Positions 1,914 through 25,227 of a stretch of 64,000 nucleotides of DNA are shown piece by piece. The notes beneath the pieces were generated by a model, which worked only from the letters and a program-made list of their open reading frames with translations, made no database searches and was not told the DNA's origin. The stretch comes from Alphaproteobacteria bacterium (GTDB taxonomy: Bacteria; Pseudomonadota; Alphaproteobacteria; JANSWW01). The stretch lies in NCBI GenBank assembly GCA_024743275.1, contig JANSWW010000003.1:156521-220520 (forward strand), written 5' to 3'. Position 1 is the first letter of the stretch, and the number at the start of each line of letters is the position of its first letter. The position numbers and the translations under genes are program-made.

Positions 1914-2108
1914 CGTCAGATACTCCCAGAATTGCGCGCCTGTGCGCACGAGGTTCGACCCGTTCGAATTGTTTCCGTTATGTGATCCGGGCGGGGGGCG
2001 GCGGCGCGTTCCAAGGCGACAGCGGCTATTCCCTTTCCGCCACCGGATGCTATCCCCTCTCCGGATGTATCCGCTAGACCGAATCCCACCCGTCGTCAGG
2101 GGACAATT

Positions 2109-3149: not shown

Positions 3150-3231
3150 GGTCGACCGACCGCACGGTCTTGATTGGCGGTCTTGATTGACGGCCTTGAT
3201 TTTGGGTCGGTTTGGCGGCACGTAACGGTCC

Positions 3232-3504
3232 ATGAGTGACGATCCCGATCTGAAGGCCCTGGCCCCCGACGGCGCGCAAATCCTGGACGTGCGGGGTTTC
3301 GCGTGCCCGCTGCCCGTGTTGAAGACCCGTAAGGCGATCAAATCGGTCGACGATGGCGGGCTGTTGCTGGTGGTCGCGACCGACCCCGCCGCCCCCTTGG
3401 ACTTCGAGGTCTATTGCCACCGGGCCGGCAATCCGCTGGAAGAGCAGTGGCAGAAGGACGATCTGTTCGGATTCCTGATCCGCAAGGGCGGTGCCGCCGC
3501 CTGA
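3232..3504 (+). CDS. tusA: TusA/SirA-family sulfurtransferase
   Basis: LDVRGFACPLPVLK (CPxP motif) and ATDPAAPLDF; 90 aa. Confidence 0.88.
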   Translation: MSDDPDLKALAPDGAQILDVRGFACPLPVLKTRKAIKSVDDGGLLLVVATDPAAPLDFEVYCHRAGNPLEEQWQKDDLFGFLIRKGGAAA

Positions 3505-3524
3505 TCGAGAGTACTTTCCGACCG

Positions 3525-8684: not shown

Positions 8685-9056
8685 CTAGAGCAGTTTCCAC
8701 TCGCCCGCCTCGGTGCGGCAGCGATCGATGATGTAGCGGAAATGGTCGCCGGCGTCCTTGACATAGATGTCGTGCTGCAGGCGGACACAGTCCAGGCCCC
8801 GTTCCTTGAACAGCTTAATGATCTCCACCGTCCCCTTGTTGCCTGTATCCTTGTTGGTCCAGGCTCCCAAGTCGCCGACCGCCCTTGCGTCGTTGCCGTA
8901 GAGCTCTTTGGCCGCGGCGCGGAGCATCTGCCGGTCTTCTTTGGTGATTTCGAAGTTGTCGCGCAGGAAAATGGTGCTGGCCCCCGCTGGCAGCGCTGCC
9001 GTCAAGAAGAGACCCGCCGCGACGGCCGCCAATAGATGGTTCTTGAACCGCATCAC
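8685..9056 (-). CDS. RT0821/Lpp0805 (17-kDa surface antigen-like) exported protein
   Basis: Signal peptide; WTNKDTGNKG...CVRLQH...CRTEAGEWKL pattern. Confidence 0.75.
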   Translation of the reverse strand: MMRFKNHLLAAVAAGLFLTAALPAGASTIFLRDNFEITKEDRQMLRAAAKELYGNDARAVGDLGAWTNKDTGNKGTVEIIKLFKERGLDCVRLQHDIYVKDAGDHFRYIIDRCRTEAGEWKLL

Positions 9057-9252
9057 TTTGTCTCCTCTGGGTGGCTCCCATGGATGGCCGGCGCGATGGA
9101 CGCTGGCTCACTTTCCACTCGCTTGAAACGATACCCTGACCCGGGGTTACCGACAATCCATCAAAAGGGGCGATGAAAGGCGTGCAAAAGGGGGGGGCTG
9201 TGCGATCTGCCGGCTGGGCTTAGGATGATTCGGCACCGGCAGAGCAGGGGGT

Positions 9253-10266
9253 ATGGGAATGCTTGAACGCGGGCAATGGGCCTTGGCAGCAGCGCTTGTC
9301 GCGTTGGCCGGTGCCGTCCTCTTTTTCGCCCTGGAACTTGCGGCCGTGCGCAAGGTGGCGCCCGAGTTCATGACCCAATTGAAGGCGACCGCGGAAGCGG
9401 TGGAGCCGGTGGCGGCGGAGATCGGTCGGGCAACCGGCACCGTTCCGGACATCCTTGCCGAATCCGAGGCCATCCGGGCGGCCCTCCCGCCGATCCTCGA
9501 TGAGATCGCCGCCGCCCGCGCCGCCGTCGACAAGGCATTGGCGGAAAGTGCGGCGGTGCGGGCGGCGATGCCGGATCTTTTGGCCGAAAGCACGGCGCTG
9601 CGCGAAACCGTCCCGGGTATTCTGACCGAGGTGGCGGAGGCCCGCGCCGCCCTTGACCGGGCCGTGTCGGAAATGGCGGAGGCCCGGCAAACTCTTCCAG
9701 ATTTGCTTGCCAGCGTCGATGCGACGGCGGTCGCCCTCGACAAGGCGGCGCTGGAAATCGAGGCGGTCCGTCCTCTTATCCCCGAGGTGCTCGATGAGGC
9801 CGTAGCGATCCGCAACCGCATCGATCCCACCTTAGACCGCCTGGATGCCGTGGTCGCGAATGCCAGGAGCGCCGGCCAGGAGGCCTCGGAGGGTGCCGTT
9901 TCCGGTCTGCTGACCGGCATCCTGAAAGCGCCCTTCTCGCTGTTCGGCGGTTTCGGTGGGGGCGACGATCTGCGCAGCCTCGCCGGAACGGAGATGCTGA
10001 CCCAGGACGATTTCGTTCTGGCGCGGGAGGCCTTCTGGGACCTGGACCTGGACCGGGCGGGTGACAGCGCGCTGTGGCGGAACCCGGAAACCGGCCTTGA
10101 GGGGAGCCTGACCGTGGTCGGGGCTGCGGACGATGTGGGGGAGGGATGCCGGCGCATCCGCAACATCGTTTCGCGGTCCGGCGAGCCCCTAACGGACAAG
10201 GTCTTGACCCTTTGTCCCGCGGAGGAGGGGCGCTGGGGGATCGTTGACCGATCGGGGCAGCGGTAA
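9253..10266 (+). CDS. Membrane-anchored helical-repeat protein with C-terminal RT0821-like domain
   Basis: N-terminal TM helix, nine 14-aa amphipathic repeats, and C-terminal WRNPETG..G...CRRI...LCP....W. Confidence 0.75.
   Translation: MGMLERGQWALAAALVALAGAVLFFALELAAVRKVAPEFMTQLKATAEAVEPVAAEIGRATGTVPDILAESEAIRAALPPILDEIAAARAAVDKALAESAAVRAAMPDLLAESTALRETVPGILTEVAEARAALDRAVSEMAEARQTLPDLLASVDATAVALDKAALEIEAVRPLIPEVLDEAVAIRNRIDPTLDRLDAVVANARSAGQEASEGAVSGLLTGILKAPFSLFGGFGGGDDLRSLAGTEMLTQDDFVLAREAFWDLDLDRAGDSALWRNPETGLEGSLTVVGAADDVGEGCRRIRNIVSRSGEPLTDKVLTLCPAEEGRWGIVDRSGQR
9451..9828 (+). repeat. Nine degenerate 42-nt (14-aa) repeats
   Basis: ILAESEAIRAALPP / ILDEIAAARAAVDK / ALAESAAVRAAMPD / LLAESTALRETVPG / ILTEVAEARAALDR / AVSEMAEARQTLPD / LLASVDATAVALDK / AALEIEAVRPLIPE / VLDEAVAIRNRIDP. 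Confidence 0.8.
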
Positions 10267-10297
10267 CGGCGGCGATACGATAGCGCGCTATCCGTCG

Positions 10298-11326
10298 CTA
10301 GCCTTGCTGTGCCACCCCGCCGCGGTTGACGGTATAGGCGATGAGGTCCGCCATCAGCCCTCTGACCGGCGTCTCGGGGACGGTTTCCAGGCATTCCGCC
10401 CCCTCGCGGGCATAGCGCCGAGCATCGCCATAGGTCTCGAAGAAGCTTGCGGACCCGATCACCTCCTCGATGGCCTTGGCGATCGCGGCCTCCCCGTCCA
10501 ACTCGCCGCGTATGACGCGTGCGATGTGGCTTTCCGGGCCCCGTTCCTCCATCGCCTTGATGATCGGCAGAGTGAGCCGCCGCATCCGCACATCGGCCCC
10601 CGGTTCCTTGCCCTCGCTGACGCTGTTGACCGTGAAATCGGCGAGGTCGTCCATGATTTGAAAGGCGCGGCCGAGCAGCCGGCCATAGCGGCCCAGCCTC
10701 ATGACATGCCGCTTGCGGCCCCGCATCAGGGCCGCGCCGGATTCGCAGGCGAGTTGAAAGAGGACCGATGTCTTGCGGTCGATGGTCTTGATATAGCGGT
10801 TCTTGAGCCGTGTCGGGGACCAGGTCGGATCGGTGGTCAGTTCGTCGATCTCGCCGCAGCAGATGCGCGATCCGGCGTCCAACACCATTTCGACCAGGTA
10901 CATGTCCTCCTGGGCATCGATGGCGCCGGCGAAGCACTTCACGGCGTTGACGAATTGCAGATCGCCGACCAGCAGGGCGATGTCCGGACCCCGTGCGGCG
11001 TTGACCGACGGCAGGCCCCGGCGCTTCGGGGCCCGGTCGACGATGTCGTCGTGGATCAGGGTCGCGACATGGAGCATCTCCAGCGAGGCGGCCGCCTTGT
11101 AGACCCTGCTCGGCATCGGCTCGGTTGCCGGCAGCGTCGAGACGGCCCGTGCGGCCATCAGCAACAGCAGCGGCCTTAGTTTCTTGCCGCGATTGTAAAG
11201 CTCGTATTCGACATCCGAGAGATAGTCCCGCATCGGTTCGATGGCCGCCGTCAGCGCCGCCCTGAACAGGGTCAGGTCGTCGGCGAGCAGGACATGGGCG
11301 TCGTCCAGCGGGCTCGGCTTATTCAT
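10298..11326 (-). CDS. trans-polyprenyl diphosphate synthase (long-chain type)
   Basis: GKKLRP, first Asp-rich motif HVATLIHDDIVD...RRG, KT, second Asp-rich motif AFQIMDDLAD, GK..G.D. Overlaps the upstream gene by 8 nt (ATGAATAA). Confidence 0.92.
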   Translation of the reverse strand: MNKPSPLDDAHVLLADDLTLFRAALTAAIEPMRDYLSDVEYELYNRGKKLRPLLLLMAARAVSTLPATEPMPSRVYKAAASLEMLHVATLIHDDIVDRAPKRRGLPSVNAARGPDIALLVGDLQFVNAVKCFAGAIDAQEDMYLVEMVLDAGSRICCGEIDELTTDPTWSPTRLKNRYIKTIDRKTSVLFQLACESGAALMRGRKRHVMRLGRYGRLLGRAFQIMDDLADFTVNSVSEGKEPGADVRMRRLTLPIIKAMEERGPESHIARVIRGELDGEAAIAKAIEEVIGSASFFETYGDARRYAREGAECLETVPETPVRGLMADLIAYTVNRGGVAQQG

Positions 11327-14300
11327 TCTTGAGGCTGTCCATCAGCGCTTCCCGGGACAGGCGTCGGTAGCGGCTCAGCACCGGAATCGCGACCCGTATC
11401 TGCTCGCGCAGGCCCGGACTCGCCCGATGGGCGACGGCGATAAGCGCCAGGATGCTCGTCTGCAGGACCAATTGCAGGTCGCGCCCGCCCTCCGGCGACC
11501 GTTCCAGGGCTGCGAGCCGCGCCCGTATGGTCGGATGATGGGCGAGCAGGCGCCAGATCTCGTCGCCATAGCCGTAGCGAAGATAGAGCAGTTGCCGGCC
11601 TTCCTCGGTCCCGGTCAGCATGAACCGCATGTCCCGGAGTGAGGGGTGGTCGGCCCCGGTTTCAGAGGCCGCCGCATTAGCCGAGGCCATGGCGCAATCC
11701 TGCACCAGGTCCTCGACGATGGTGACCGCCTCGTCATAGGTCTTGTGGAAGAAGCTCGTGAGCGCGCTGACGATCTGATCGAATTCGGCGCCGATATCCT
11801 TCAGATACTGGGCCGCGTCCTCGGCGCCCGTCTCGAAGTAGTTGGCAAGCGCGTTGGCGACATTGTCGATGTCGTCGGCAAGCTCGCCCAGGGCGTTCTT
11901 GATCGCGTCGATCCACTTCGAGACATCGCTCAGGATGTCCGCGAATACCTTCTTCACGTTGTTCTCGAGCCAGGAGAGGATCGCCGAGCCGAGCTTCGAG
12001 AGGTCGCTGGCGATATCGCCCAGGTCCAGGGTGAAGTGCAGATCGAACTTCGGCAGGCCGCCCCACTCGAAGGTGAGATGCATGGAAAGCGACACGTCGC
12101 TGCCGACGGTGATGGAGGCCCCGAGATCGGCTTTCGGTCCGTCGATATGGACTTTCGGGATCAGCGTGATGCCATCGACCTTCAATGGCCCCAGGGTGAC
12201 GTCAAGGTTGAAGTCGATATCGGCGCCGGCGGTGAAGTTCTTGTCGTCGATCAGGTGGCAGTTGAGGGTGTAGCCGTAGATGTCGAGGAACTTGGTCTCG
12301 ATGTCGAAGTCGAAGCTGGATTTGGCCGCCTTGGCGTTGACCGATTCGGTCAGGCCCAGAACCTCGACCTTGCCGTCCAGGGTGAAATAGGGCGGCGACC
12401 CGTCGGCCGCCCAGCTTTCGAGCGTCAGAAGCGGGGTGCCGTTGGCCAACGCAATGCGGTTGGCCCGCTGGAGGGCCGCCAGTTGGGTTGTGTCGATGGA
12501 CCCGCTCGGCCCCTTGCTGGCGTCGTCCGCCGCAGACAGGGTGAAGACGTCGAGCAGGGTGATCGGCTTGCTGATGCTGCCGCTGGCGATGATCCCCTTG
12601 GAGAACTCGACCTCGATGTTGAAGTCCGCCTCCCAGGAGAAGATATCGATGTCGGCGATGATCCCGATACCTTGCGGAAAGGTGGCGCTCTTGCCGTCGG
12701 TGGTGACCGTGGCGCCGGCCGGATCGGCGACGACCCAGAACGCGATTTCCTTGAAGCCGATATCGTCGAGGATCGGCACGTCGCTGAGATCGAGATCGGT
12801 GAAGGTGGAGATCAGATCGCCGAGGGTCAGCTCCTGCCCCTGGCCGTCCTTGAGTTCGAACAGGAAGAAATCCGGCTCCTCGAAGTCGACGATGCTGCCG
12901 GCGATTTCGAAGATGATCGAATCTCCGTTGTGGCCGACCTCGAACTGGCCCTCCAGCATAATGGTCAGCCCGATCTCGTCGACCGTGATGCCGAGTCCGA
13001 AGGAATCGATCGTCAGGCCGGTGATGCCGAACGGGTCTTTCCAATGCTCGATCTGGATGGTCACGGTCAGTTTCGGCGCAGGTCCGACGGTGATCGTGCC
13101 GTCGCCCTCGAGCCCGATGCTCTCACCATGGACGTTGAGGGTCGCCTGAATGTCGATGGTGGCGGTGATCGGCGGCCCTTCCTGGATGGTTAGGCCGAGC
13201 TCCTTGAAGGCGAGCGCGTTGGTCGACGGGCTGCCGGGCAGGGTCGCCTTGAATTCGGACTTCGACGGATCGCCCTCGTCGATGACCAGCAGAAGGTCCA
13301 GCTTGATGTCGTCGTTGAACAGCTTCGAGACCGGGCCGACGATGTCGCCGGTGAGCTCCAGGGAGGCGAAGAAGGTGAACCCCTCGTCGACGCTGGCCGG
13401 CAGGGCCGGCAGTTTGATGTCCGGCAGATTGACGCTGTTGCTGCCCTTCATGGTCGAGACGATGACGCCTTCGTCGTCGATGGTGATGTCGTTCAGGATC
13501 CCGTTCAGTCCCGACCAGAGGTCGCCCGGCGACCACTTCTCCGTCACCACCAGGCCGGTGATGACGCCATAGGTTCCCTGGGCCTTGCGGAGATCGAAAT
13601 AGGCCGCGCCCACGGTGGTTTCGTTGACCGCGGCGGAGCCCGAGAAGGAGAACTCGTAAAGCTCGCTGGTCGTGTTCAGCGTGATCGCCACATCGATGTT
13701 GTCGAAGGTGACGGTCACGCCGCTGATGATCTGGGTATGGGTGATTTCCTGGGCGAGCTTGCCGAGGTCCAGCTTTTCGATGTTGCCCTTGAGCTGGAAG
13801 TCGCCCGGGAGGGTCCAACGCGTCGAGAAGGTGGCGTCCCCCGCACCGCCACCGAGATCCAGATCGCCGTTCGCCCCGATCGTGCCGCTGGTCTTCGACG
13901 ATTCGTAGTCGAGCGACAGGTAGGCCTCGGTCAGGGTGAGGGTCGTGAACCCGATCGGGACCGACCAGTCGCCGGTGAGGCCGGTGGTGAGCTGAAAGCT
14001 CTTCGGATCCGTCTGTCCGCCGAAATTCAGTTCGTTGAGGACAAGCGTCGTCCCGTCGAGGCCGAAGGAGGGAATGAAGTTTTGGACGAACGGCACCAGG
14101 TCGATCGTCGTCCCCTCGACCAGTCCGCCGGACACGCTGAACTTCGGGGCGGTGGCCGACAGGGCGATGTCGCCCCCGCCGACCTCGAACAGGCCGTCGA
14201 GTGTGGCGATGACCGAGGACTTCTCCACATTCACCGTGAAGACGATGTCGATCTGGTCGATGGTGATCTGGCTGTAGACCGGCCAGGGGGCGGTGGTGCC

Positions 14301-15260
14301 GAGATCGATCGCCACCGTGGTTATCTTCTTTGTCTTTGGCATCAACAGGAAGGTCAGGGACTTGAGCGCGAAGTTGCTGCCCGGATCGAACCCGTCCGAC
14401 GGCAAACTGCCGGCGAAATCGATGCCCGGCAGCATCGTGGCGAAATCGGAGAAGGCGACCTCGGAGAGCTGGGTCGTGTTGGCCGTGATCGGCACGCCGC
14501 CGGAGGGGGCGGTGATGTCCATCGTGATCGGAAGCTGCACCCCGGCCAGCGGGATCGTCGAAGCGAGATCGAGGGATGTCTTGGGGCTGTAATAGGGGGA
14601 CGCCGCCTGGCTGCCGCCACTTACCGAAAGCGGCTGAGGCGTCGTCAGGACCGGTTTGCAGGCCACGACCAAGTCGAGGGCGAGTTTGCCCAGCACCGGC
14701 AGGGTCTGTTCGGCCAAGGTCAGGGACAGGCTGAAATCCGGAACCGCATGGCTTTGGCCGATCGCCCCGGCCATCGAGGCGACGCCGTTGTCGCCAAGGA
14801 GCCACAGAATGGTCTGCCAGTCGTCGGACAGCGTGAGGTCGCCCTTGAAATTGAGCCCTTTCTTGAGGCTCCCCGCCGCGACGGAGGTGAGGGTGAGCGT
14901 GCCGTTGGCCACGGTGATCTTGCTGATCCAGAGATTCGCCAGGACCGGCCAGCCGGTGGCGAAGGTCCAGTCGGACGCCAGGGTGGCGGTCAGGGTCAGC
15001 ACGGTGTCCTGCCCTGACGGGCTGAAATCCGCATCGACGGTGAGGCCGGCGAGCGGGGCGCCGCTGCAGGTCGCGCCCTTGATCGTGACCGCCTCGCCGT
15101 CTTTGGTCAGGGTCACACCGGTGAGATCGAGTTGCCCATTCGCGAAATAGGTCGTGAGAACGTCCTGGATGCCGCCGCTGCCGAAAGCGTTGGCGGGCAA
15201 GGTCAGGGTCGTTCCCGAAAGATGGGTGTTCAGCGTGTCGTAGATGCTGGTCGAGGCCAT
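11319..15260 (-). CDS. 1313-aa hypothetical protein: long beta-rich body, amphipathic helices, CFI-box-CTERM-like tail
   Basis: GAGGAG RBS; long ORF with strong GC3 codon bias; T/S/G/D-rich alternating hydrophobic strands; no signal peptide. Confidence 0.88.
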   Translation of the reverse strand: MASTSIYDTLNTHLSGTTLTLPANAFGSGGIQDVLTTYFANGQLDLTGVTLTKDGEAVTIKGATCSGAPLAGLTVDADFSPSGQDTVLTLTATLASDWTFATGWPVLANLWISKITVANGTLTLTSVAAGSLKKGLNFKGDLTLSDDWQTILWLLGDNGVASMAGAIGQSHAVPDFSLSLTLAEQTLPVLGKLALDLVVACKPVLTTPQPLSVSGGSQAASPYYSPKTSLDLASTIPLAGVQLPITMDITAPSGGVPITANTTQLSEVAFSDFATMLPGIDFAGSLPSDGFDPGSNFALKSLTFLLMPKTKKITTVAIDLGTTAPWPVYSQITIDQIDIVFTVNVEKSSVIATLDGLFEVGGGDIALSATAPKFSVSGGLVEGTTIDLVPFVQNFIPSFGLDGTTLVLNELNFGGQTDPKSFQLTTGLTGDWSVPIGFTTLTLTEAYLSLDYESSKTSGTIGANGDLDLGGGAGDATFSTRWTLPGDFQLKGNIEKLDLGKLAQEITHTQIISGVTVTFDNIDVAITLNTTSELYEFSFSGSAAVNETTVGAAYFDLRKAQGTYGVITGLVVTEKWSPGDLWSGLNGILNDITIDDEGVIVSTMKGSNSVNLPDIKLPALPASVDEGFTFFASLELTGDIVGPVSKLFNDDIKLDLLLVIDEGDPSKSEFKATLPGSPSTNALAFKELGLTIQEGPPITATIDIQATLNVHGESIGLEGDGTITVGPAPKLTVTIQIEHWKDPFGITGLTIDSFGLGITVDEIGLTIMLEGQFEVGHNGDSIIFEIAGSIVDFEEPDFFLFELKDGQGQELTLGDLISTFTDLDLSDVPILDDIGFKEIAFWVVADPAGATVTTDGKSATFPQGIGIIADIDIFSWEADFNIEVEFSKGIIASGSISKPITLLDVFTLSAADDASKGPSGSIDTTQLAALQRANRIALANGTPLLTLESWAADGSPPYFTLDGKVEVLGLTESVNAKAAKSSFDFDIETKFLDIYGYTLNCHLIDDKNFTAGADIDFNLDVTLGPLKVDGITLIPKVHIDGPKADLGASITVGSDVSLSMHLTFEWGGLPKFDLHFTLDLGDIASDLSKLGSAILSWLENNVKKVFADILSDVSKWIDAIKNALGELADDIDNVANALANYFETGAEDAAQYLKDIGAEFDQIVSALTSFFHKTYDEAVTIVEDLVQDCAMASANAAASETGADHPSLRDMRFMLTGTEEGRQLLYLRYGYGDEIWRLLAHHPTIRARLAALERSPEGGRDLQLVLQTSILALIAVAHRASPGLREQIRVAIPVLSRYRRLSREALMDSLKNE

Positions 15261-15276
15261 GGTCCGGCTCCTCGTT

Positions 15277-16341
15277 CTAAAGATCGATCGAGAGATGGAG
15301 CGGGTAGTGGTCGCTGATGCCGTAGCGGACGATCAGCCAGGCCCATATCGCCTCGTCGAGACATTGATTGAGCGGGTCGGGGAAACAATCCGCGTTGGGG
15401 AAGGCCCGGTTGCCGTCGCCGTCGACGAGGTCGAAATTCTGAACGATGCCCCGGACCAGCGAATCGGAATCCATCACCTTGGCGACGAGATCGATCACCG
15501 TGCCCGCGGCGTTGTCGGGATTGATCGTCGAGGCGTAGAAGATGTTGTCGAGTTGCAAGTTGAGATAGGACGCCGCGTCCGTGGGCCAGGTGTCCGAGTT
15601 ATCGCCCCATTTCCTCCGGCCGTCCTGGAGCGACACGATATGGGTGTCGTCGGTCGTCATCGCGGTCGTGCCGGCGCCGTGCTGATCGTCGGCCGGGGGC
15701 GCCGGCGGGTTCTCGGCCGCGTCAGTCAGCCATTGATAGGGGCCGGTCTCGCTGTTGACGTCGAGATTGTAGTCTCCGCACAGCAGCCGCTCGTAGACGG
15801 CCTGGTTCGCGCCCGCATTGTCCACCGCATAGATTTCCGGCGTCATCGCCAGGCTTTGCAGGCCGTTGCGGGCAAAGGTGTTCGGCGGGGCGTGATAGAC
15901 CGACACGGCGAAATTGTTGTTGGTGTCCGTTGTGCGGAACCCCATGACCGCCGCGCGGCGGCCGTTGCTGTTGAACCAGTTACAGGGGAACTCGACGGTG
16001 GACAGGCCCGCGTTGAGATTGTTGTGGCCATCGAGAACCGGGGCGAAGGCGCCGCCGGTCCGGTAGATGATGCCATAGCTCTCCCGGTCGCCCTGGGGAC
16101 GGGCCTGGACGACATAGTATCGCCAGTCCTCCTCGGTGTATTCGGCCAGGGCCTCGCAGACGCTGTAGCAGACCGCCTCGGCGGTGGAACTGCTCAACTC
16201 CATCAGCGCCAGGATGTCGGCCCCCGCCTGCACGCCGACGATGGCGATCAGACGGACGAGCCGGTAATTGTTGACCGAGTTCCCGTATTTCTGTGGTCCG
16301 AAGACCTCGATGTTCCAGGAGAGGATGTTGATCGTCGCCAT
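15277..16341 (-). CDS. Exonuclease/endonuclease/phosphatase (EEP) family protein
   Basis: ILSWNIE, DILALMEL, VYHAP, LCGDYN, LDNIF and ISDHYPL make up the full DNase I-like catalytic set. Confidence 0.88.
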   Translation of the reverse strand: MATINILSWNIEVFGPQKYGNSVNNYRLVRLIAIVGVQAGADILALMELSSSTAEAVCYSVCEALAEYTEEDWRYYVVQARPQGDRESYGIIYRTGGAFAPVLDGHNNLNAGLSTVEFPCNWFNSNGRRAAVMGFRTTDTNNNFAVSVYHAPPNTFARNGLQSLAMTPEIYAVDNAGANQAVYERLLCGDYNLDVNSETGPYQWLTDAAENPPAPPADDQHGAGTTAMTTDDTHIVSLQDGRRKWGDNSDTWPTDAASYLNLQLDNIFYASTINPDNAAGTVIDLVAKVMDSDSLVRGIVQNFDLVDGDGNRAFPNADCFPDPLNQCLDEAIWAWLIVRYGISDHYPLHLSIDL

Positions 16342-16359
16342 CGGCCCGTCCCCCGCGGC

Positions 16360-17661
16360 TCAGCTCGAGATCGTGACGTTGCCGACCACGCCGAGATAAC
16401 CGCCGACATTGGTCTTTCCGAGACCGGTCGGCGTCATGGTGATGTTCTTGCCGTCGATCGAGACCGTCGCCGTCGGGATGTCGAAGCTGTCGACGTTGAT
16501 GCCCTTGAGGAAGCCGGTGACCAGCGGGGTCAGGCTGGTGACCACGCCGTCGATGATGGCGGAGATCAGCCAGCCCACGACCTTGGCCGGGATCGAGCCC
16601 GTGGGGCTGACGACGATGGTGAACGGATTGACGCTGGCGGTGACCAGATTGACCTTGCTGCCGCTGATCTGCAGGTCGATGACGACCGACGGATCGGGGG
16701 TGGCGTGGGCGTTGAAGCCGAGCCCGATCGGCACGAACACGATCTTCACCCCGGCGGAGACGTCCCCGTTCAAGGTGAAGGTCCCGGCGACATCCGTGCC
16801 CTGGATCGATGTGTGGGGGTTGGTGAGCGACAGCCCGTAGCCCCAATGATAGCCGGCCCAGTCGTCGCCGCCACTGCCGTGATCGCTGAACTTGTTGGTC
16901 GCCGAGGCGAGCGCGACCTCGACCTGGGCCTGGATCATGTTCGGCCCCAGCAGGGCGAAGAAGTTGTCCGACGGCCAGGGGAAGGTGCCGTCCGGCGGCG
17001 GCGGCGTGCCGGCGGCGGCGAGGTTGCTCGCCAGAATGACGGAATCATTGACGATCCCGACCGACGGGGTGGCGATCGAGACGCTGCCGACCGAGATCGG
17101 CGGCAGATCGGTGCTGGAGAAGATGCTCTGCAGGGCGGTCTTCAAGGCCGGGTCGACCACATGGGTCACCAGATATTGCTGCACCGGATCCTGCTGCGGC
17201 GCGGCGCTGACCGACATAACGGTGAAGGTCAGCTTGTCGCCGGAGATTTCGGCCGTGCACTGCGCGGAAAACGGCAGTTTGAGCGTGGTCGTCGGCGCCC
17301 CTTTGGAGGACAGGGTGATATCGACCTCGGAGAAGCTCACCGTGAAGCTGGGCGTTTCCGCCGCCAGAAGCGGGATCGCCCGCTTCAATTCGACCGCCTT
17401 CGGATCGTCCGCCGACATCGGCATGGCGAGCGAGTCGTTGAGCCGGTCGGTCAAAAGGTCGGTGACCGCGTCGGCGGAGGCGGGTTTGGAGAGATCGAAG
17501 GTCGGCGCCGCTTTGACGTCCCAGGCGACCGTGTAGTCCACGCTCTTATAGGACGAGTCCTGCGTGCCTTTGAACGGACCCGGATAGATCGCGGCGTAGA
17601 CCGCCTTGCTGCCCGCGTCGAGCTGGGCCTGATTGATGCCGAGGGCGATATCGAAAGACAT
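16360..17661 (-). CDS. Hypothetical protein, putative two-domain BPI/P47-like (TULIP) fold
   Basis: GGGGGAG RBS; two similar halves, each with strand-helix start, beta meander, long amphipathic helix and a (L/I)P...hairpin end. The fold call is inference. Confidence 0.8.
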   Translation of the reverse strand: MSFDIALGINQAQLDAGSKAVYAAIYPGPFKGTQDSSYKSVDYTVAWDVKAAPTFDLSKPASADAVTDLLTDRLNDSLAMPMSADDPKAVELKRAIPLLAAETPSFTVSFSEVDITLSSKGAPTTTLKLPFSAQCTAEISGDKLTFTVMSVSAAPQQDPVQQYLVTHVVDPALKTALQSIFSSTDLPPISVGSVSIATPSVGIVNDSVILASNLAAAGTPPPPDGTFPWPSDNFFALLGPNMIQAQVEVALASATNKFSDHGSGGDDWAGYHWGYGLSLTNPHTSIQGTDVAGTFTLNGDVSAGVKIVFVPIGLGFNAHATPDPSVVIDLQISGSKVNLVTASVNPFTIVVSPTGSIPAKVVGWLISAIIDGVVTSLTPLVTGFLKGINVDSFDIPTATVSIDGKNITMTPTGLGKTNVGGYLGVVGNVTISS

Positions 17662-17728
17662 GACTGTTGCTCCCCCTGGCGCCGGGGCGCCCGGCGCGAT
17701 GGTTGATGGATGGACGCCCGGCGGCGGG

Positions 17729-19081
17729 TCAGGTCAACGAGGCCAGGGCCTTGTTGATGATCGTCGAGAGCTGATTGCGGACATTCTCAGCGCCCAGCGA
17801 GTTGTTCACCTGGGTCCCGAGGGTCGACTGGAACCAATCCGCGTCGTTCAACTCGCTCTGGACGTCCGACGTGAAGCTCGGGTCGGAGCCGTTTAGAAGG
17901 TTGATCTTGATGTTCGGGATGTCCGCCGAAAGCTTGGTGACGTCGACGGTGAGCGTCTCGTTCGGCGGCGTCCCGGTGATCGTGACGGTGCCGGTAAAGG
18001 TGATCGTCGGCGAGGTGAAGGTGAAATCGAAGTTGCCGGTGCTGGTATATGTCGTGATCTGATCGACCTTGGCCTGTTCCTTCTCGGCGGCCTGGGCGGC
18101 CCATTTGGGATAGTCCCGTTCGGCGGCCTCCCGTGCCTCGCGCGCCCAGTCCGGCTCCTCGATCGGTTCGGCGAGGGAGGCGCCGTTGGGGTTGGTGTTC
18201 GAGACGGTCGTCATCACCGACCCGACGGTCCGCTGATAGGCCTGCGGCAGGGCATGACCCTTGAACCCCAGGATCGCCTCTTTCAGGTTGCTGAACGGAT
18301 CGTCCTGCGCCTCCTCGGCGCTGATCCCGTTCGGAATGCGGTTGATGGTCTCCTTGTAGAACATCGTCTGCATGTAGATGGCGTGGCTGTTGTAGTTGGT
18401 ATCGCCGACGGTGAAGCTGTTATTGTCCGGGTTGGAGGCGGCGGCATTGGTCACGGCCATGTAATAGGAGGTCTTCTGTCCGGCCGTCGGATAGTTCTTC
18501 CACGCCTCGGTGAACGAGTTGGTGCCCGACGTGATCTGATACATCGGGTCGTTGTTGTCGTAGTAGGTGGCGACGAGGGACGGACCGCCACCGCCTCCCG
18601 ACATCAGATTTCCGCGATATTGCGTGGCGAGCGTCATGTTGTCGCCGCTGGACGCCGCCGCCAGTTCCGGCGGGATCGGTTGCGGGTTGGCGTTCGCCTC
18701 CGCCTCGTCCATGGCGCAGCCGGTGAGGCCCTTGCCGTCCGCCTCGAAGTTGCCTTTGAAGTCGAGGGATTGGAAGACGACCTCGATGGTCACGGAACTG
18801 GCGTCGTCGGCCGGGGTGAAGCTCTTCTTCTGGATCGAGGGCAGCCCGCTCAACACCAGCGAGGTCAGGGAGATATCGACATCGCCCCAGGTGCTCGATT
18901 TGTAGATCGGGATATTCTTGATGTCGGACAGTGTCGTCGACTGCATCGGCTCGATCTTGTCGCCTCCGATGGTGCCGCCGTTCTTCAGAAGACTCGGCAG
19001 ATAGTATTGGGAGCTGGAGTCCCAGATGAGGTTCCAGGCTTGCTTGAGGATCGCGACATTCGGGTTTCCGTTGGTTTCCAT
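17729..19081 (-). CDS. Hypothetical protein, putative TULIP (Takeout/JHBP-like) domain with large internal insertion
   Basis: GGAG/GAGG RBS; shares SSxYY[LM]PxxxKN, LxxxxxSGL and the C-terminal QLSxIxxKALA helix with the upstream gene. Confidence 0.82.
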   Translation of the reverse strand: METNGNPNVAILKQAWNLIWDSSSQYYLPSLLKNGGTIGGDKIEPMQSTTLSDIKNIPIYKSSTWGDVDISLTSLVLSGLPSIQKKSFTPADDASSVTIEVVFQSLDFKGNFEADGKGLTGCAMDEAEANANPQPIPPELAAASSGDNMTLATQYRGNLMSGGGGGPSLVATYYDNNDPMYQITSGTNSFTEAWKNYPTAGQKTSYYMAVTNAAASNPDNNSFTVGDTNYNSHAIYMQTMFYKETINRIPNGISAEEAQDDPFSNLKEAILGFKGHALPQAYQRTVGSVMTTVSNTNPNGASLAEPIEEPDWAREAREAAERDYPKWAAQAAEKEQAKVDQITTYTSTGNFDFTFTSPTITFTGTVTITGTPPNETLTVDVTKLSADIPNIKINLLNGSDPSFTSDVQSELNDADWFQSTLGTQVNNSLGAENVRNQLSTIINKALASLT

Positions 19082-19168
19082 GACCTCTACTCCAGCATCG
19101 ATTGTTGAAAGAAAGGGCGGCGCCCCGCCGTTGCCTTTCGGGTGCCTTTCCGGGGGCGCCGGCCGAAA

Positions 19169-20719
19169 TCAGGTCTCCTTCTCGGCGGCCGCCTGTTCGG
19201 CGAGCACGTTGGCGAGCGCCTTGGTGACGATCTTGCTGAGCTGATCGAGGATCGACTGGCTGTTGATCTCTGCCTGCAGCCGCTGCAGCACCACCGTCGT
19301 GGCCTGGGTCGTGTTCAGGGTGTTGTCGATGTACTCGTTCCAGCTATCCCGGCCCTTGTCCTTGGGGATGCTGGTCGCGTCGACCTTGAAGACGATGTTC
19401 TTCGCGTCCGTCACATTGGGGTCGCTCTGGATCCGCAGGCCCTTGACCGTCCCGGTCAGATTGTCGTGGCTGTCGGTGCCGATGGCGATGAAGGCCCCCA
19501 GGGCCGCCGCCTTGATGGTCGCGGTGAAGGTCCCGGTGCCGGTCTGCGGCTGGGACGCGCCGGAGCAGGTCTGGAAATTCGTCGTCGGGCAGCAGCTCAG
19601 CTTCAAGGTGAAGGTGCCGCTCAGTTCGAACTGATACTGCCAACTCGGCACCTGGCCGACGATGGCGAGCCCCGTCACATTGTCGCCGATCACCATAAGC
19701 GGCTGCGGCAGCGCGTTCGACAGGCCTGAAATGACGATGTTCTCAAGGGTCAAGGGGGCTGGCGCGCCCGGGGTTCCGATCCACGATTCCGAGCCGGGCG
19801 CGGAGGCGCCGCAGATCGAGCTGACGGCCGACGAGGCGAAATCGCCGATGCTGCCGATGGACCAGCTCGAATTCGTCGTCGTGTACGGCTCCAGCGTCGG
19901 GTCGGACGCATTCTTGATCACCGTCGGCATGTAGTAGTCGCTCGACGCATTGGTCGCCATTTTGTAGAGCAGCGACACGGTAAAGCTGAGCAGCGACGGT
20001 TTGGCGACCGACTGGACATAGGCCGTCAGCCCCTTGTTGAGGGCCGATGTCACGCTTGACTGAGCCAGGCATTTGTTGATGACGGTCGAGAAGACCCCCG
20101 GATTGGCCGCGAGCGCACTGCCGAGATCGTTGGCGATCTTCACCTGGGCGGTCGGGTCCGCCGGCTGTTCCAGCGTGAAGGTGTGGGTGGTCAGGCTGCC
20201 GACCGCGCAGGTCAGCGATGTGACGGAAACGTTGTAACTCCCGTCCACCGTTGCCTTCAGGGTCAGGACGGCTCCGCCGAGGCCCATCGTGAAGGTGCCG
20301 CTGATCGTCTCCGCTTTTCCGCAGTCGATGGCGATGGAGAAGGAGCCGGTGATGGTCGGCTGTTCGAGGACGAGACCGGTTGGTACGCTGGCGCCGCCGA
20401 GGGTGACCGTCATACTGACGTCGTTGCCGCTGACCGATTGATTGCCGAGCACACCGTTGGCCAGACCGGAAACCGAGACGTTGGTGAGCGTCATCGTCGC
20501 GCTGGTCGCCGTCCCGCCGCCCATGTCGGTGCAAAGGGTTTGCGCCAGGGTGCCGCTGATCTGGCTCAGATCGCCGAAATCCACGGTGCCGGAGACGGCC
20601 AAGGGGTCGAGGACGGGAAGCGGTTGGGCGAGAACCAGGACGGGATAGAAGAGCGCGCTCGTCTCGTCATTTCCTTTGGTGACGATCGTATCGATCACAT
20701 CGGAAAGGCTCTGGGTCAT
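19169..20719 (-). CDS. Hypothetical protein (516 aa), two tandem putative TULIP (Takeout/JHBP-like) domains
   Basis: Start re-set to ATG 20719 (MTQSLSD; RBS GGGGAG). Internal duplication: LDPL...LTNVSVSGLAN...ITGSF...GTFT versus LEPY...LENIVISGLSN...LSGTF...GTFT. Confidence 0.82.
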   Translation of the reverse strand: MTQSLSDVIDTIVTKGNDETSALFYPVLVLAQPLPVLDPLAVSGTVDFGDLSQISGTLAQTLCTDMGGGTATSATMTLTNVSVSGLANGVLGNQSVSGNDVSMTVTLGGASVPTGLVLEQPTITGSFSIAIDCGKAETISGTFTMGLGGAVLTLKATVDGSYNVSVTSLTCAVGSLTTHTFTLEQPADPTAQVKIANDLGSALAANPGVFSTVINKCLAQSSVTSALNKGLTAYVQSVAKPSLLSFTVSLLYKMATNASSDYYMPTVIKNASDPTLEPYTTTNSSWSIGSIGDFASSAVSSICGASAPGSESWIGTPGAPAPLTLENIVISGLSNALPQPLMVIGDNVTGLAIVGQVPSWQYQFELSGTFTLKLSCCPTTNFQTCSGASQPQTGTGTFTATIKAAALGAFIAIGTDSHDNLTGTVKGLRIQSDPNVTDAKNIVFKVDATSIPKDKGRDSWNEYIDNTLNTTQATTVVLQRLQAEINSQSILDQLSKIVTKALANVLAEQAAAEKET

Positions 20720-20940
20720 GGCGCGTCTCCCCTGATTTTGCTGTTTTGTGAAGTGTTTAGGGTCTTTTTCTGCGTTCTTAGGCGGCAAAAAATACCTTCA
20801 CAGCAATCAAAAATAGCAACAGCCTGAATAATATCGCAATCCTTTAATCACAAAGGATCGATAAAATTTCGTGATAAAATTGTTTCAATCAGATTGTATC
20901 GTGCATTAGCGGATTTTAAGGGAGGTTCCGAAAATCCATG
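20720..20940 (-). promoter_or_regulatory. AT-rich promoter region of the six-gene operon with GATAAAATT direct repeat
   Basis: Clearly AT-rich relative to the flanks; GATAAAATT at 20860-20868 and 20873-20881. Confidence 0.5.
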
Positions 20941-21184
20941 CCGTTGGAGACACCGCTTGCGGCCTCCGGTCTCTCTGGGATGATTGCGCGATCACCAACC
21001 GTGTCATGGCGAGGCCTTTCGGATTGGCGTTGACCGTCCGCTCGATCTTTGTCCCGCGCATGGTGCGGGACCTGATGCCTTAGGCTACGTGTCTTGGAAA
21101 CCGTCTGGGCTGATCCGCCCTGTGAACCTCTTCGTCGCGTTTGAGGGATTGTTAATTCTTTTCGGCTACACCCGACAAAGACTT

Positions 21185-21781
21185 ATGGCGGACCGGCCGG
21201 CCCGTCCCCCACGCAAAGGCGGTGCACTGGTGCCCATGTTCAAGACCGGATCAGGCTTCGACAGGATGTTCGACTATTGGATAGGGCTGAAGGGCGATCA
21301 GGCATTGCCCGCCTATCATGCGATCGACCCGATCGAGATCCCATGGGCGTTGGCCAATCTCTATGTCGTCGAGCGCAAGGACGACGGCATGTTCCGATAT
21401 CGGCTGGTCGGCGAAGCGGTGCAGGCCAAGTATCGTGTTTCCCTTAAGGGCCGGACGTTGCACGATTTCCTGGAGAAGGAGACCGCCGACCGGACCGTTG
21501 CCACGTGGGAAGAGGGGCTGCGGAGCGGACTGGTGCGTTATACGCACTCCCGCCATTACCGCGACGTGTCCTATCCGATTTGTGGCCGGCGGTTGCTCAT
21601 GCCCTTCGCGGACCGTGACGGCCGGGCGCGTTTCATTCTCGGCTATGTGGAGTTTACCGCGGAGATGCGATCGCTCGTCCCGCTCGAGGCGGCGCGCACC
21701 GAGATCTTCCACGAGACCTGGATCGACGCGGAAGGCGAGGTCACTGCCGCGCCCGGTACCGGCGCCGTGGCGGTCGGTTAG
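21185..21781 (+). CDS. Stand-alone PAS (PAS_5-like) domain protein
   Basis: FDYWIGLKGDQALP...IDPIEIP..L...FRYRLVGE...RLLMPF.D.DG....ILG. Start uncertain (21185 or 21236). Confidence 0.78.
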   Translation: MADRPARPPRKGGALVPMFKTGSGFDRMFDYWIGLKGDQALPAYHAIDPIEIPWALANLYVVERKDDGMFRYRLVGEAVQAKYRVSLKGRTLHDFLEKETADRTVATWEEGLRSGLVRYTHSRHYRDVSYPICGRRLLMPFADRDGRARFILGYVEFTAEMRSLVPLEAARTEIFHETWIDAEGEVTAAPGTGAVAVG

Positions 21782-21788
21782 GGCGCCG

Positions 21789-22313
21789 TCACCAGTCCGC
21801 CGCGCCGAGAATACTGGAAACCCGCGTTCCGTCGTCCGACAGCGGCAGAAGGACGCCCGCCGCCGACCGTAGGGTGATGTTCCCGCTGGTATAGGTAAGC
21901 CGGAAGAAGACGGGCGCGCCGCGCCGATACACCGCCTGTGCCCCGGTTCGGAAAGGGGCGGCGCTGGGGTTCTGGGCGATCAGGTCGTTGACGGACAGGC
22001 CGGTGAGATCGCGCCCGTATTCCCATTCGTGACGGGAGCCGAAGAGCCGCCACCGGAAATCCTCGCCCGCGCCCAGCACGTCGAGAATCACGAGATGCGG
22101 CAACAGCCGCGGGCCGAGGCGGAGCGGGTCGACCTGGTCGCGCCGGGGCATGGCTGTGGGATTGATATCACGCCACACCGCCTCGGTTTCCCGCGCAATC
22201 CGGAAATCCGGATGCTCTCGGGTCGCGGCGTCATCGACAAGTTCGATGTCGCTTGAAAGGCCAGCATCGAATTGGATTTCCGACAACGGTTTTTTGCGAT
22301 CGTCGGCCGCCAT
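21789..22313 (-). CDS. Stand-alone PAS (PAS_5-like) domain protein
   Basis: VW.....MPRRDQVDP...LLPHLVILDV...FRWRLFG...GRDLTG...LLPLSDDGTRV..ILG. Start re-set to ATG 22313. Confidence 0.8.
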   Translation of the reverse strand: MAADDRKKPLSEIQFDAGLSSDIELVDDAATREHPDFRIARETEAVWRDINPTAMPRRDQVDPLRLGPRLLPHLVILDVLGAGEDFRWRLFGSRHEWEYGRDLTGLSVNDLIAQNPSAAPFRTGAQAVYRRGAPVFFRLTYTSGNITLRSAAGVLLPLSDDGTRVSSILGAADW

Positions 22314-22788
22314 CTTCCATCCTCGCCGGCTGCCTTTGTGAGATGCCCGACGAAGGGCACGCTCCTCTCGACCTTTGACATAGGGTGCGTCGTGGCCATT
22401 TCGACGCAGGACAGGCATTCTCCAATCGTGGCATACATCGCCGGACCGTTCCGCCGCACTCTCCGTCACCAATCCTCTCCGGTTGCTCAGCGAGGCCCTG
22501 AAGATCGAAATCGTGAAATTCGGGAGGGGACCGCTGCGCCGTCTTGATTCCGGGCGGTGAGGATTTTATGTTTGGTTAGCTAAAATTCACACTTATCCAA
22601 CATGAGCCGGACATAGGTTTTTCGATCAAATAAATCGGTAGGGCTGGTGATGTGTATTTAGGTTTGGTGTGAATAACCGTATTGCGGGCATTTAAATTTT
22701 TTTTAATTAAAACTGCCACTAAACGCGTGCCGAAATCTCTCCGATGTGCTTTTCTCTTGCCGGTACGATTCAGGGTTTGGGAAGCGTC

Positions 22789-24660: not shown

Positions 24661-25227
24661 ATGCACGCTGACGCGCGAAACGGCCAATCGATCCTGTGGC
24701 GGCGCCTGGACGCCCCCGGGCATGAGGCCTGCTTTGTCCGCTGGACGGGGGCGAATTGGTTGATTGAGGGGGCCGCGGTGGGGCGCGACCGGGGCGCGGC
24801 CTCGATGCTGAACTATGCCCTTGTCTGCGACCACAATTGGATGGCGCGCAAGGCCGCCGTCTCGGGCTGGACCCCGGAGGGCGAGATCGATCTGGCCATC
24901 GATCGCGACACATCCGGAACCTGGCGGGTGAACGGTATCGCCGTTCCCGAGGTGGATGGGGCGTTGGACCTCGATCTCGGGTTCACGCCGGCGACCAATA
25001 CTCTGGCGATCCGGCGCCTGGGCCTGGATGTGGGTGAGTCGGCGGACATCGCGGCGGCCTGGCTGGACGTTTCCGATTGGATGATGAAACCCCTGGCCCA
25101 GGGCTATGACCGTCTCGATGAGGATCATTATCGCTACCGGTCGCCAGGTAACGATTATGAAGCCCGGTTGGAAACCGATCCGTTCGGCATGGTCACAGCC
25201 TATCCGGGCCTCTGGGTTCAGGCCTAG
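24661..25227 (+). CDS. Putative glycolipid-binding domain protein (DUF1089-like)
   Basis: LWRRLD.PGHE, DLDLGFTPATNTLAIRRL, Q.Y.RL, G.V..YPGLW. Confidence 0.8.
   Translation: MHADARNGQSILWRRLDAPGHEACFVRWTGANWLIEGAAVGRDRGAASMLNYALVCDHNWMARKAAVSGWTPEGEIDLAIDRDTSGTWRVNGIAVPEVDGALDLDLGFTPATNTLAIRRLGLDVGESADIAAAWLDVSDWMMKPLAQGYDRLDEDHYRYRSPGNDYEARLETDPFGMVTAYPGLWVQA

Follow-up and report, generated by a model that had tools for sequence, protein, structure and literature searches.

Six co-directional genes on the minus strand of a 64,000-nucleotide stretch of alphaproteobacterial DNA (contig JANSWW010000003.1; this whole stretch is hereafter called the window), between positions 10298 and 20719, constitute a fixed, mobile and selected set, encoding one certain and two probable TULIP proteins (gene 3, and genes 1 and 2, respectively), a DNase-I-like EEP enzyme (gene 4), a giant beta-sheet protein (gene 5) and an extra prenyl synthase (gene 6). 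Our preferred interpretation, to which we assign a probability of roughly 0.45, is that this cassette produces a soluble, lipid-loaded complex of several TULIP and beta-sheet proteins with an EEP enzyme, built around gene 5. We infer, moreover, that the product of the synthase would be the ligand of both the tubes and the sheet, that the proteins would assemble into one complex and that this complex would act on other organisms. In the mechanism proposed, gene 6 would act in the cytoplasm and supply a dedicated polyprenyl diphosphate, all-trans and long-chain (the family and the motifs of the enzyme are observed, the length of its product is predicted), which the three tube proteins (genes 1-3) would take up, judging by what TULIP folds do. 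The amphipathic sheet of gene 5, whose strand pattern comes from a medium-confidence model, may act as a scaffold or as a lipid-coating surface, and gene 4, by its fold family, would be the catalytic component, either trimming the phosphate head group of the lipid or acting as a nuclease payload. The complex would most likely either stay in the cytoplasm of the producer or be released independently of Sec and Tat to act on the membranes of other cells. We lean towards an outward, inter-organismal role, hinted at by lectin fusions in relatives, the patchy spread of the set, a relative of gene 5 on a Bacillus thuringiensis plasmid and the Arg-poor, acidic and Thr/Ser-rich composition of the proteins. 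None of the six shows an export signal in a simple hydropathy scan, and the botulinum OrfX and P47 proteins are likewise not known to carry one.

The unity of the set is best seen in its conservation. Scanning a gene-5 alignment against one genome per species and a metagenome collection yielded seven loci, in which the remaining genes were placed by tblastn. All six genes stand in the same order in a metagenome-assembled genome (MAG) of Ornithinicoccus (L002), in a second actinomycete MAG (L003), in a Bacteroidota MAG (L004, on a 2.84-Mb contig) and, together with one extra copy of gene 2, in a metagenome contig (L005). Two short metagenome contigs (L006 and L008) keep gene 5 followed by gene 6, and a third one (L007) ends 65 nucleotides after gene 5, which makes it uninformative for the synthase. 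To these a genome of the same class as the window's was added (G102, locus L016; a single contig, listed as 100% complete), the only one among 400 other genomes of the phylum with a gene-3 family member in a profile search, where the order is gene 2, gene 3, gene 4, gene 5, gene 6 and the C-terminal part of gene 1, at 26-47% identity. A 517-aa open reading frame (ORF) upstream of gene 2 in that genome was considered as a candidate gene 1 and rejected, not being gene-1-like. Altogether, the synthase directly follows gene 5 in every locus that extends past gene 5 (7 of 7: L002-L006, L008 and L016), and genes 1-4 are present in all five related loci with upstream sequence. The prediction that the synthase and the EEP gene would be retained with the four then unrecognised genes is thus borne out, in the same order and across phyla. 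The flanking genes differ in every locus, and the local GC content is 0.66-0.70 in the other loci and 0.44 in the Bacteroidota one. The closest relative of the window's genome among the genomes searched belongs merely to the same class, and gene 2 was found in none of 60 class-level relatives. The cassette is, in short, rare, patchy and horizontally mobile, crossing phyla. As for the state of the individual copies, genes 3, 4 and 5 of the Bacteroidota locus (L004:7686-13932) are in frame-shifted pieces (about eight for gene 5), genes 1, 2 and 6 being intact, which could reflect either decay of that copy or homopolymer errors of long reads; L003 and L002 show a few frame breaks too.

Selection is visible at a shorter distance. 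In a near-identical strain, sequenced in a different study, all 13 kb of this region lie on a single contig of 102 kb, where 36 substitutions were counted and the cassette is free of indels. The six genes account for 27 of the differences between the two strains (21 synonymous, 6 non-synonymous), so that the genes are real and under purifying selection. Regarding the wider occurrence of window positions 9000-22000, a run of a second study, with a coded organism label, holds a copy 99.7% identical, an aquatic metagenome holds pieces about 90-95% alike, and the best-matching DNA run is labelled as a phycosphere metagenome, from which the window may derive; none of the matching runs listed is an RNA run.

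Recalculated from the ORF coordinates, the number, orientation and sizes of the genes (Table 1) and the gaps between them (87, 67, 18, 16 and -8 nucleotides from gene 1 to gene 6) agree with the preliminary description of this DNA. The longest ORF of gene 1 spans 19169-20788 (539 aa from an upstream TTG); the 516-aa form starts at the ATG at 20719, which has GGGGAG a few bases 5' of it and at which the alignments of homologues begin. A single AT-rich promoter had also been proposed ahead of the operon. The leader is certainly AT-rich, its GC content falling to 0.30-0.38 at 20750-20949 in a window that averages about 0.64, and it contains an AT-rich hairpin with a 10-bp stem at 20860-20837, but a sigma-70 consensus scan gave a single weak site (21007-20980), no more than shuffles give, so the promoter itself remains presumptive. 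The hairpin between genes 1 and 2 could reduce read-through and raise the dose of gene 1, although its signal is within chance and therefore weak, the region having 12 terminator-like sites against 8.4 +/- 3.4 in shuffles. The GC content at third codon positions is 0.85-0.90 in the six ORFs, as in the neighbouring genes, so they are not compositionally foreign, and neither a tRNA in the window nor flanking direct repeats marking an island were found.

Table 1. Features of the six-gene cassette and its surroundings (positions are those of the window)
Feature	Position	Strand	Basis or remark
AT-rich leader, presumed promoter region	20720..20983	-	5' of gene 1; dip in GC content
Gene 1, 516 aa, two-module, probable TULIP-type, paralogue of gene 2	19169..20719	-	ORF and hhalign
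Possible partial terminator: short GC-rich hairpin, then T-rich run	19114..19130	-	87-nucleotide gap between genes 1 and 2; consensus scan
Gene 2, 450 aa, probable TULIP-type	17729..19081	-	sub-threshold Pfam JHBP match
Gene 3, 433 aa, BPI-like double-TULIP protein	16360..17661	-	fold model and Foldseek
Gene 4, 354 aa, divergent DNase-I-like EEP phosphoesterase	15277..16341	-	profile match to DNase I
Gene 5, 1313 aa, giant acidic protein, predicted amphipathic antiparallel beta-sheet (about residues 1-1080) and helical C-terminal region	11319..15260	-	AlphaFold2 (AF2) model
Gene 6, 342 aa, trans-polyprenyl diphosphate synthase, extra paralogue	10298..11326	-	Pfam; 8-nucleotide overlap with gene 5

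In composition, genes 1, 2, 3 and 5 are alike: they contain 0.5-1.6% Arg (9.4% in gene 6) and 17-24% Thr plus Ser, as had been pointed out for these four proteins, and all are strongly acidic, with a net charge of -93 for gene 5. They prefer Lys to Arg in a genome of 64% GC (for instance, 4.2% Lys and 0.5% Arg in gene 3). The absence of Sec or Tat signals and transmembrane helices, also claimed earlier, stands at the level of a simple hydropathy scan, which found no signal-peptide-like N-terminus, lipobox or transmembrane anchor in the six proteins. Their peak 19-residue hydropathy ranges from 0.97 to 1.91, against 2.43 in a flanking membrane-type protein, and the peaks of gene 4 (1.91) and gene 5 (1.62) fall in predicted core or strand segments.

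The firmest of the TULIP assignments is that of gene 3, for which a search of 1.84 billion cluster representatives returned 174 family members at E<=1e-3. A fold predicted from a 63-sequence alignment reached a predicted local distance difference test score (pLDDT) of 92.6 and a predicted template modelling score (pTM) of 0.87. Foldseek placed BPI first for this model (1e-14), followed by LBP, CETP, P47 (1e-9), OrfX3 and OrfX2, and BPI outranks P47 in both fold searches. The superposition extends over the full length, on the two-domain architecture of the BPI/LBP/CETP/P47 type, so that gene 3 is, according to its model, a full-length BPI-like double TULIP, in spite of an identity of 10-13% to BPI, LBP and CETP. 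At the sequence level, faint LBP_BPI_CETP_C matches appear in 3 of 63 gene-3 relatives (best E 0.0027), Pfam P47 matches neither genes 1-3 at E<=0.1 nor those 63 relatives at E<=0.01, the profile of the family against the sequences of solved structures gave nothing meaningful, and gene 3 has no match in the plasmid collection. Used as single sequences against solved structures, genes 1-5 gave nothing below E 0.4. Eleven over-long relatives of gene 3 were scanned for additional domains, and lectin domains turned up in three of them (Jacalin in one, B_lectin in another, ChW together with Ricin-B in the third), which points to extracellular, target-binding roles for part of the family.

Genes 1 and 2, the other candidate tube proteins, give weaker signals of the TULIP type. 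Pfam JHBP matches residues 54-119 of gene 2 at E 1.7e-5, although the 24.5 bits of this match fall short of the cut-off (29.2), and the signal recurs in two of the eight other family members scanned (E 0.0015 and 0.027). Only three homologues of gene 2, at 45-47% identity, were retrieved by a word search of 5.8 billion proteins, and a locus search with the single gene-2 protein returned no related locus. Gene 1 has no Pfam match and no match to PDB sequences, either as single sequence or as profile; the nearest named clusters in language-model features are the arthropod Grp7_allergen and JHBP (0.90 and 0.89), which is to be taken as a lead only. Its relationship to gene 2 is better grounded. 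The C-terminal region of gene 1 aligns with gene 2 (hhalign 77%, E 2e-5), the N-terminal motif 'YYLP' is common to gene 2 and the second module of gene 1, and an internal duplication is indicated by residues 241-390, which match the same stretch of a locus as residues 4-133. In the G102 genome, the C-terminal half of gene 1 is a separate gene of 342 aa (hhalign 99.8%).

Gene 6 is the sole gene of the cassette that reaches a Pfam threshold (polyprenyl_synt, PF00348; E 2.6e-51, 174.7 bits against a cut-off of 27). Its best NCBIfam matches are hepta-, nona- and solanesyl-type synthases, all far below the equivalog cut-offs. Both DDxxD motifs are intact in the window's copy and in five of five orthologues, and the family reads LH(V/T/M)ATLIHDD, i.e., with small residues before the first DDxxD, as in the IspB-like copy of the same genome. 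Small residues at -4 and -5 before this motif are the mark of a long product (C30 or longer), and this rule suggests a long-chain product for gene 6. The window's genome contains four PF00348 genes, and those of L002, L003 and L004 contain four, three and three, respectively; the cassette synthase is never the best-scoring among them. By these counts, gene 6 is an extra, dedicated prenyl synthase paralogue.

The synthase and the EEP enzyme had been singled out as the recognisable members of the set; this was straightforward for the synthase, and for the EEP enzyme it took a profile search of solved structures. Gene 4 has no Pfam match at E<=0.1 and only weak NCBIfam matches to the nucleases MnuA and ExeM/NucH, but a profile of its four orthologues matches DNase I over about 200 residues (E 1.9e-5), with the motifs QE, H-A-P, GD(F/Y)N and SDH(Y/L)P aligned. 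Residues E48, H150, D190, N192, D344 and H345, which we take to be catalytic, are invariant in all four orthologues and aligned to the DNase I motifs. The GDYN and SDH motifs lie on either side of an inserted stretch of some 130 residues. Judged by sequence, gene 4 is a divergent member of the EEP superfamily, specifically a DNase-I-like one, with its motifs intact.

About ten homologues of gene 5 were identified, which share 38-44% identity with it, and a profile word search with its alignment added at least three further proteins among the best 8000 candidates, which were those scored. The AF2 model of residues 1-1190 (pLDDT 73.2, pTM 0.38) shows 64 strands in an up-and-down arrangement, followed by a poorly modelled helical tail. 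The strands alternate between hydrophobic and polar residues, with a score of 2.94 against 1.50 +/- 0.15 in within-strand shuffles, none of 500 of which reached it. The giant beta protein announced in the preliminary description is therefore upheld, with some 64 amphipathic strands, and the picture is extended by the helical tail and by the hub-like pairing described below. With regard to its fold, the top Foldseek matches are three ApoB100 entries (E 1.3e-6 to 1.6e-5), at a template modelling score (TM) of 0.11 and a root-mean-square deviation (rmsd) above 20 A; LptD comes next (E 6e-5, probability 0.69, TM about 0.1), and Tc/Rhs shells rank 21-44 with probabilities of 0.16-0.21. VIA returned only generic meander or barrel matches, porins included, at an rmsd of about 20 A and covering mostly residues 655-1080; a BFVD fold search gave TM of about 0.1 and nothing specific, and the ESM Atlas only unnamed clusters at 0.80-0.83, below the meaningful level. 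The model is safely read as an antiparallel sheet that is very long and amphipathic and belongs to no identified family, and the likeness to ApoB100 may amount to no more than that of one long antiparallel amphipathic sheet to another. As for sequence families, the N-terminal half of gene 5 is homologous to residues 30-596 of a 1565-aa DUF6603 protein, P0168 (hhalign 98%), whose DUF6603 domain (839-1302) lies outside that stretch; gene 5 itself does not match DUF6603 (PF20248) at E<=0.1, which leaves it outside that family. For the C-terminal half, hhalign finds homology to an Acidovorax protein of 852 aa (99.6%). Matches confined to the helical tail (E about 5e-4) in two genomes of the phylum sample, G165 and G208, were set aside as coiled-coil noise.

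More distant relatives of gene 5 occur with parts of the cassette. A tblastn search of gene 5 against 72,556 plasmids returned seven records, all below 30% identity. In pSCAT, the megaplasmid of Streptantibioticus cattleyicolor, a synthase that shares 49% identity with gene 6 comes first, next a protein of 581 aa with the N-terminal motif of gene 1 (hhalign 88%) and then, overlapping the latter by 4 nucleotides, a 1204-aa gene-5-like protein; against the plasmids, the gene-1-like protein matched only itself. In Herpetosiphon pHAU01, a 1446-aa giant with a gene-5-like N-terminus is preceded, at a distance of 30 nucleotides, by an EEP protein of 335 aa that hhalign relates to the gene-4 profile (95.4%). 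In Azospirillum lipoferum AZO_p2, a 3380-aa protein that is gene-5-like over one stretch has, 18 nucleotides upstream of it, an annotated EEP protein matching the gene-4-specific C-terminal part (hhalign 75%), the pair being flanked by insertion sequence (IS) elements. A 982-aa relative stands alone on a Bacillus thuringiensis plasmid. Remote matches to gene 5 were also found in 3 of 400 sampled genomes of the class of L002, tblastn showing DUF6603-type giants in two of them, and no cassette neighbours were detected by tblastn within about 9 kb of these three regions. The neighbourhoods of the DUF6603-type loci (L028-L030), Herpetosiphon and Azospirillum were assessed from tblastn together with the annotation of the records. 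Since the giant pairs either with an EEP gene alone or with a synthase and a gene-1-like gene, and in the cassette with both, the system looks modular, and from these pairings gene 5 looks like its hub. Within 12 kb of the Azospirillum pair there are also a gene of the SIR2 family (1570 aa; L033:24943-29655) and a number of IS elements, an arrangement suggestive of an island of accessory or conflict genes.

Several points weigh against a lipid-loaded complex built around gene 5. The TULIP assignment of genes 1 and 2, which we regard as probable, rests on sub-threshold matches; profiles of the two families found nothing among solved structures, and hhalign found no relationship of either to the gene-3 family. 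The gene-5 family likewise showed none, although these hhalign negatives are weak evidence, as the profiles contain only 4-9 sequences. For gene 5, a pTM of 0.38, a TM of 0.11 to ApoB100 and the barrel matches at comparable rmsd make 'long antiparallel meander' the only safe term. All that speaks for an action of gene 4 on lipid head groups is the breadth of the EEP family, and no immunity gene is visible in case gene 4 is a true DNase made in the cytoplasm. Lastly, the pSCAT locus has no EEP or gene-3 homologue (by tblastn, and by comparing upstream ORFs with the gene-3 and gene-4 profiles), and the distant relatives of gene 5 on the B. thuringiensis plasmid, in Herpetosiphon, in Azospirillum and in three DUF6603-type actinomycete loci come without synthase or TULIP genes, so that the lipid module is not obligatory for the wider gene-5 family.

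The strongest competitor of the lipid-loaded complex is a toxin complex of the OrfX/P47 type, in which the TULIPs would be accessory or protective, gene 4 a CdtB-like nuclease effector and gene 5 a device for delivery or membrane insertion, with the synthase supplying a structural lipid cofactor. Clusters of orfX and p47 occur, according to the survey text consulted, in many non-clostridial bacteria and consistently beside toxin genes (PMC7020563), and the best alignment of gene 4 with DNase I, the recurrence of the EEP-giant pair on plasmids (flanked by IS elements in Azospirillum), the lectin fusions of some distant gene-3 relatives, the plasmid location of the B. thuringiensis relative and the patchy, phylum-crossing distribution would all fit. 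The DNase-I-like nature of gene 4 and the lectin-fused relatives, in particular, give an effector of this kind about the same weight as a pure lipid-transfer function, and in this respect the alternative already raised in the preliminary description (an orfX/p47-like complex) has gained ground, while membership by sequence has not materialised: Pfam P47 finds neither the tube proteins nor the gene-3 relatives, and BPI stands above P47 in both fold searches. Furthermore, the cassette has no recognisable toxin, NTNH-like or OrfX1-like gene and no visible immunity gene, Pfam and NCBIfam scans detected no toxin families in it or its flanks, gene 5 resembles no toxin fold above the generic level reached by the Tc/Rhs shells, and the long-chain synthase fixed in every close locus would be left unexplained. 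On balance, we regard this toxin complex as unlikely, even if it is the alternative to be taken most seriously.

A more specific version of the lipid-loaded complex is a prokaryotic counterpart of lipoprotein particles, in which gene 5 would form an amphipathic belt of ApoB-like architecture and the BPI/CETP-like TULIPs would load it with a neutral or anionic long-chain polyprenyl lipid, made by the synthase and trimmed by the EEP enzyme, the soluble particle being either stored or released as a weapon or public good. Taken in all its detail this is improbable, and clearly more so than the toxin complex; in broader terms, that the cassette represents a new kind of protein-lipid particle system is a possibility.

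Two further explanations are, in our opinion, quite improbable. One of them is a housekeeping type of lipid transport or storage serving the envelope of the producer, like the Mla, Lpt, AsmA/TamB or YceB-type TULIP systems. That TULIP folds move lipids is supported by the portions consulted of PMC6791001 and of the TipA preprint (bioRxiv 10.1101/2025.09.09.675085), and LptD is among the Foldseek matches of gene 5. Against it, the LptD matches are at a TM of about 0.1, none of the six proteins shows a signal peptide, lipobox or anchor in the hydropathy scan, and few genomes have the set, in a patchy pattern (1 in a sample of 400, none in one of 60). The same cassette is found, besides, in actinomycete and Bacteroidota genomes, two groups that differ in the architecture of their envelopes. 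The other, about equally improbable, is a small cluster for a terpenoid or isoprenoid natural product, in which the TULIPs and the giant would carry or sequester the product or protect the producer from it. The dedicated extra prenyl synthase and the variant on the S. cattleyicolor megaplasmid speak in its favour, but no family besides the synthase reached its threshold in the Pfam and NCBIfam scans of the six genes and their conserved neighbours, i.e., no cyclase, aromatic prenyltransferase, P450 or tailoring enzyme was detected there, and genes for non-enzymatic proteins take up about 9 of the 10.4 kb. Least probable of all is an anti-phage or anti-plasmid defence system with an EEP nuclease as effector, because, although a nuclease-like enzyme beside large unknown proteins, a patchy and mobile distribution and the SIR2-family gene 12 kb from the Azospirillum pair are in line with it, PADLOC (E 0.005-0.009) gave only coiled-coil-level matches and PHROGs (E 1.7e-4) only a coiled-coil tape-measure match, all in the tail of gene 5, and we know of no defence system with a prenyl synthase or TULIP proteins, a point on which no search was made.

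Compared with known systems, the closest in organisation are the orfX-p47 clusters, which likewise have several TULIP genes in a row and are toxin-linked as far as the consulted text of their survey goes (PMC7020563). The cassette differs from them in lacking sequence membership, an OrfX1-like small protein and an NTNH/BoNT-like or other recognisable toxin gene, and in possessing a beta-sheet protein of 1313 aa, an EEP enzyme and a prenyl synthase that is a fixed member of the set; the main text of that survey contains none of the words prenyl, polyprenyl or isoprenoid, its supplements lying outside this statement, and in the same text the roles of OrfX1-3 and P47 are given as unknown (PMC7020563). 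We therefore file the cassette with the bacterial multi-TULIP gene clusters, with partner genes entirely different from those of orfX-p47. Gene 3 shares the double-TULIP fold of the eukaryotic BPI, LBP and CETP, but it is bacterial, distant in sequence and, by the hydropathy scan, without signal peptide. Another parallel is TipA of Bdellovibrio bacteriovorus, described in the consulted part of its preprint as a lipid-filled, BPI-like double TULIP whose gene shares an operon with that of a partner, and for which an action on other cells' membranes is proposed there (bioRxiv 10.1101/2025.09.09.675085). Going by that description, TipA/TipB is set apart from the cassette, being a two-gene operon with a small beta-sandwich adapter and no synthase, EEP enzyme or giant. 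The JHBP, Takeout and mite group-7 allergen proteins, from which the weak signals of gene 2 (JHBP) and gene 1 (Grp7/JHBP) derive, are eukaryotic, secreted and single-domain, and the matches of genes 1 and 2 are sub-threshold; JHBP binds a sesquiterpenoid, as mentioned in the part consulted of the TipA preprint (bioRxiv 10.1101/2025.09.09.675085). The ApoB100 beta-belt and vitellogenin-type sheets are no closer to gene 5 than porins and other barrels, which score as well or better. Finally, gene 4 shares its catalytic motifs with DNase I, has weak matches to MnuA and ExeM/NucH and differs by its insertion and by having no signal peptide; the CdtB-type nucleases are named here as possible kin, the alignment having been made with DNase I.

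The earlier statement that no named system has this gene set holds within the collections consulted, as none of the families in Pfam, NCBIfam, PADLOC and PHROGs accounts for the set and the literature search, which had supplements and subscription journals outside its coverage, returned no description of it. The same search returned no paper on DUF6603 and nothing relevant, by title or abstract, on TULIP proteins and polyprenyl lipids in bacteria, and the Lipocone preprint mentions TULIPs only in another context. Prokaryotic TULIPs are, in the words available from the TipA preprint, under-represented in the literature (bioRxiv 10.1101/2025.09.09.675085), and bacterial BPI/P47-like TULIPs are a case of known structure and poorly understood function. 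The cassette ties three TULIP-type proteins genetically to a lipid synthase and a phosphoesterase, in fixed order and across phyla, and in this way gives a concrete candidate ligand (a long-chain polyprenyl phosphate or alcohol) and a set of partners, both of which are usually lacking in studies of lipid-transfer proteins. Were the lipoprotein-particle counterpart true, bacterial BPI/P47-like TULIPs would for the first time have a native ligand to which they are genetically linked, and by analogy there would be a hint at the cargo of the OrfX/P47 proteins. The cassette also reveals a family of giant amphipathic beta-sheet proteins that partly overlaps the DUF6603 proteins and is repeatedly paired with EEP enzymes. 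Bench work is feasible, given that a reduced variant exists in S. cattleyicolor NRRL 8057, which is cultured and non-pathogenic.

Some neighbouring genes deserve mention. Genes of sensor or second-messenger type lie beside the cassette in three loci, without being positionally homologous: two PAS_5-domain proteins upstream of it in the window (20984-22472), a GAF plus HD-type phosphohydrolase protein just upstream in L005 (1189-3069) and a GAF-GGDEF-EAL protein nearby in the G102 genome (L016:3413-5350). Two tandem proteins with phage-tail-collar domains lie about 1 kb upstream of the cassette in L003 only (2620-3630), and in L008 (3175-4764) a 530-aa ORF with MutS domain V overlaps the end of the synthase gene by 4 nucleotides. 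In the window, 4 kb upstream of the cassette, a 'putative glycolipid-binding' protein (PF06475) is encoded on the plus strand (24661-25227); the other loci examined do not have it next to the cassette. On the other side, the minus strand encodes a 904-aa ORF (342-3056) with a full MttB trimethylamine methyltransferase domain at residues 403-899 after an unassigned N-terminal stretch of about 400 aa, which may be an over-long ORF call or a fusion, and a 652-aa protein (3525-5483) in which Calx-beta and von Willebrand factor type D domains occur together.

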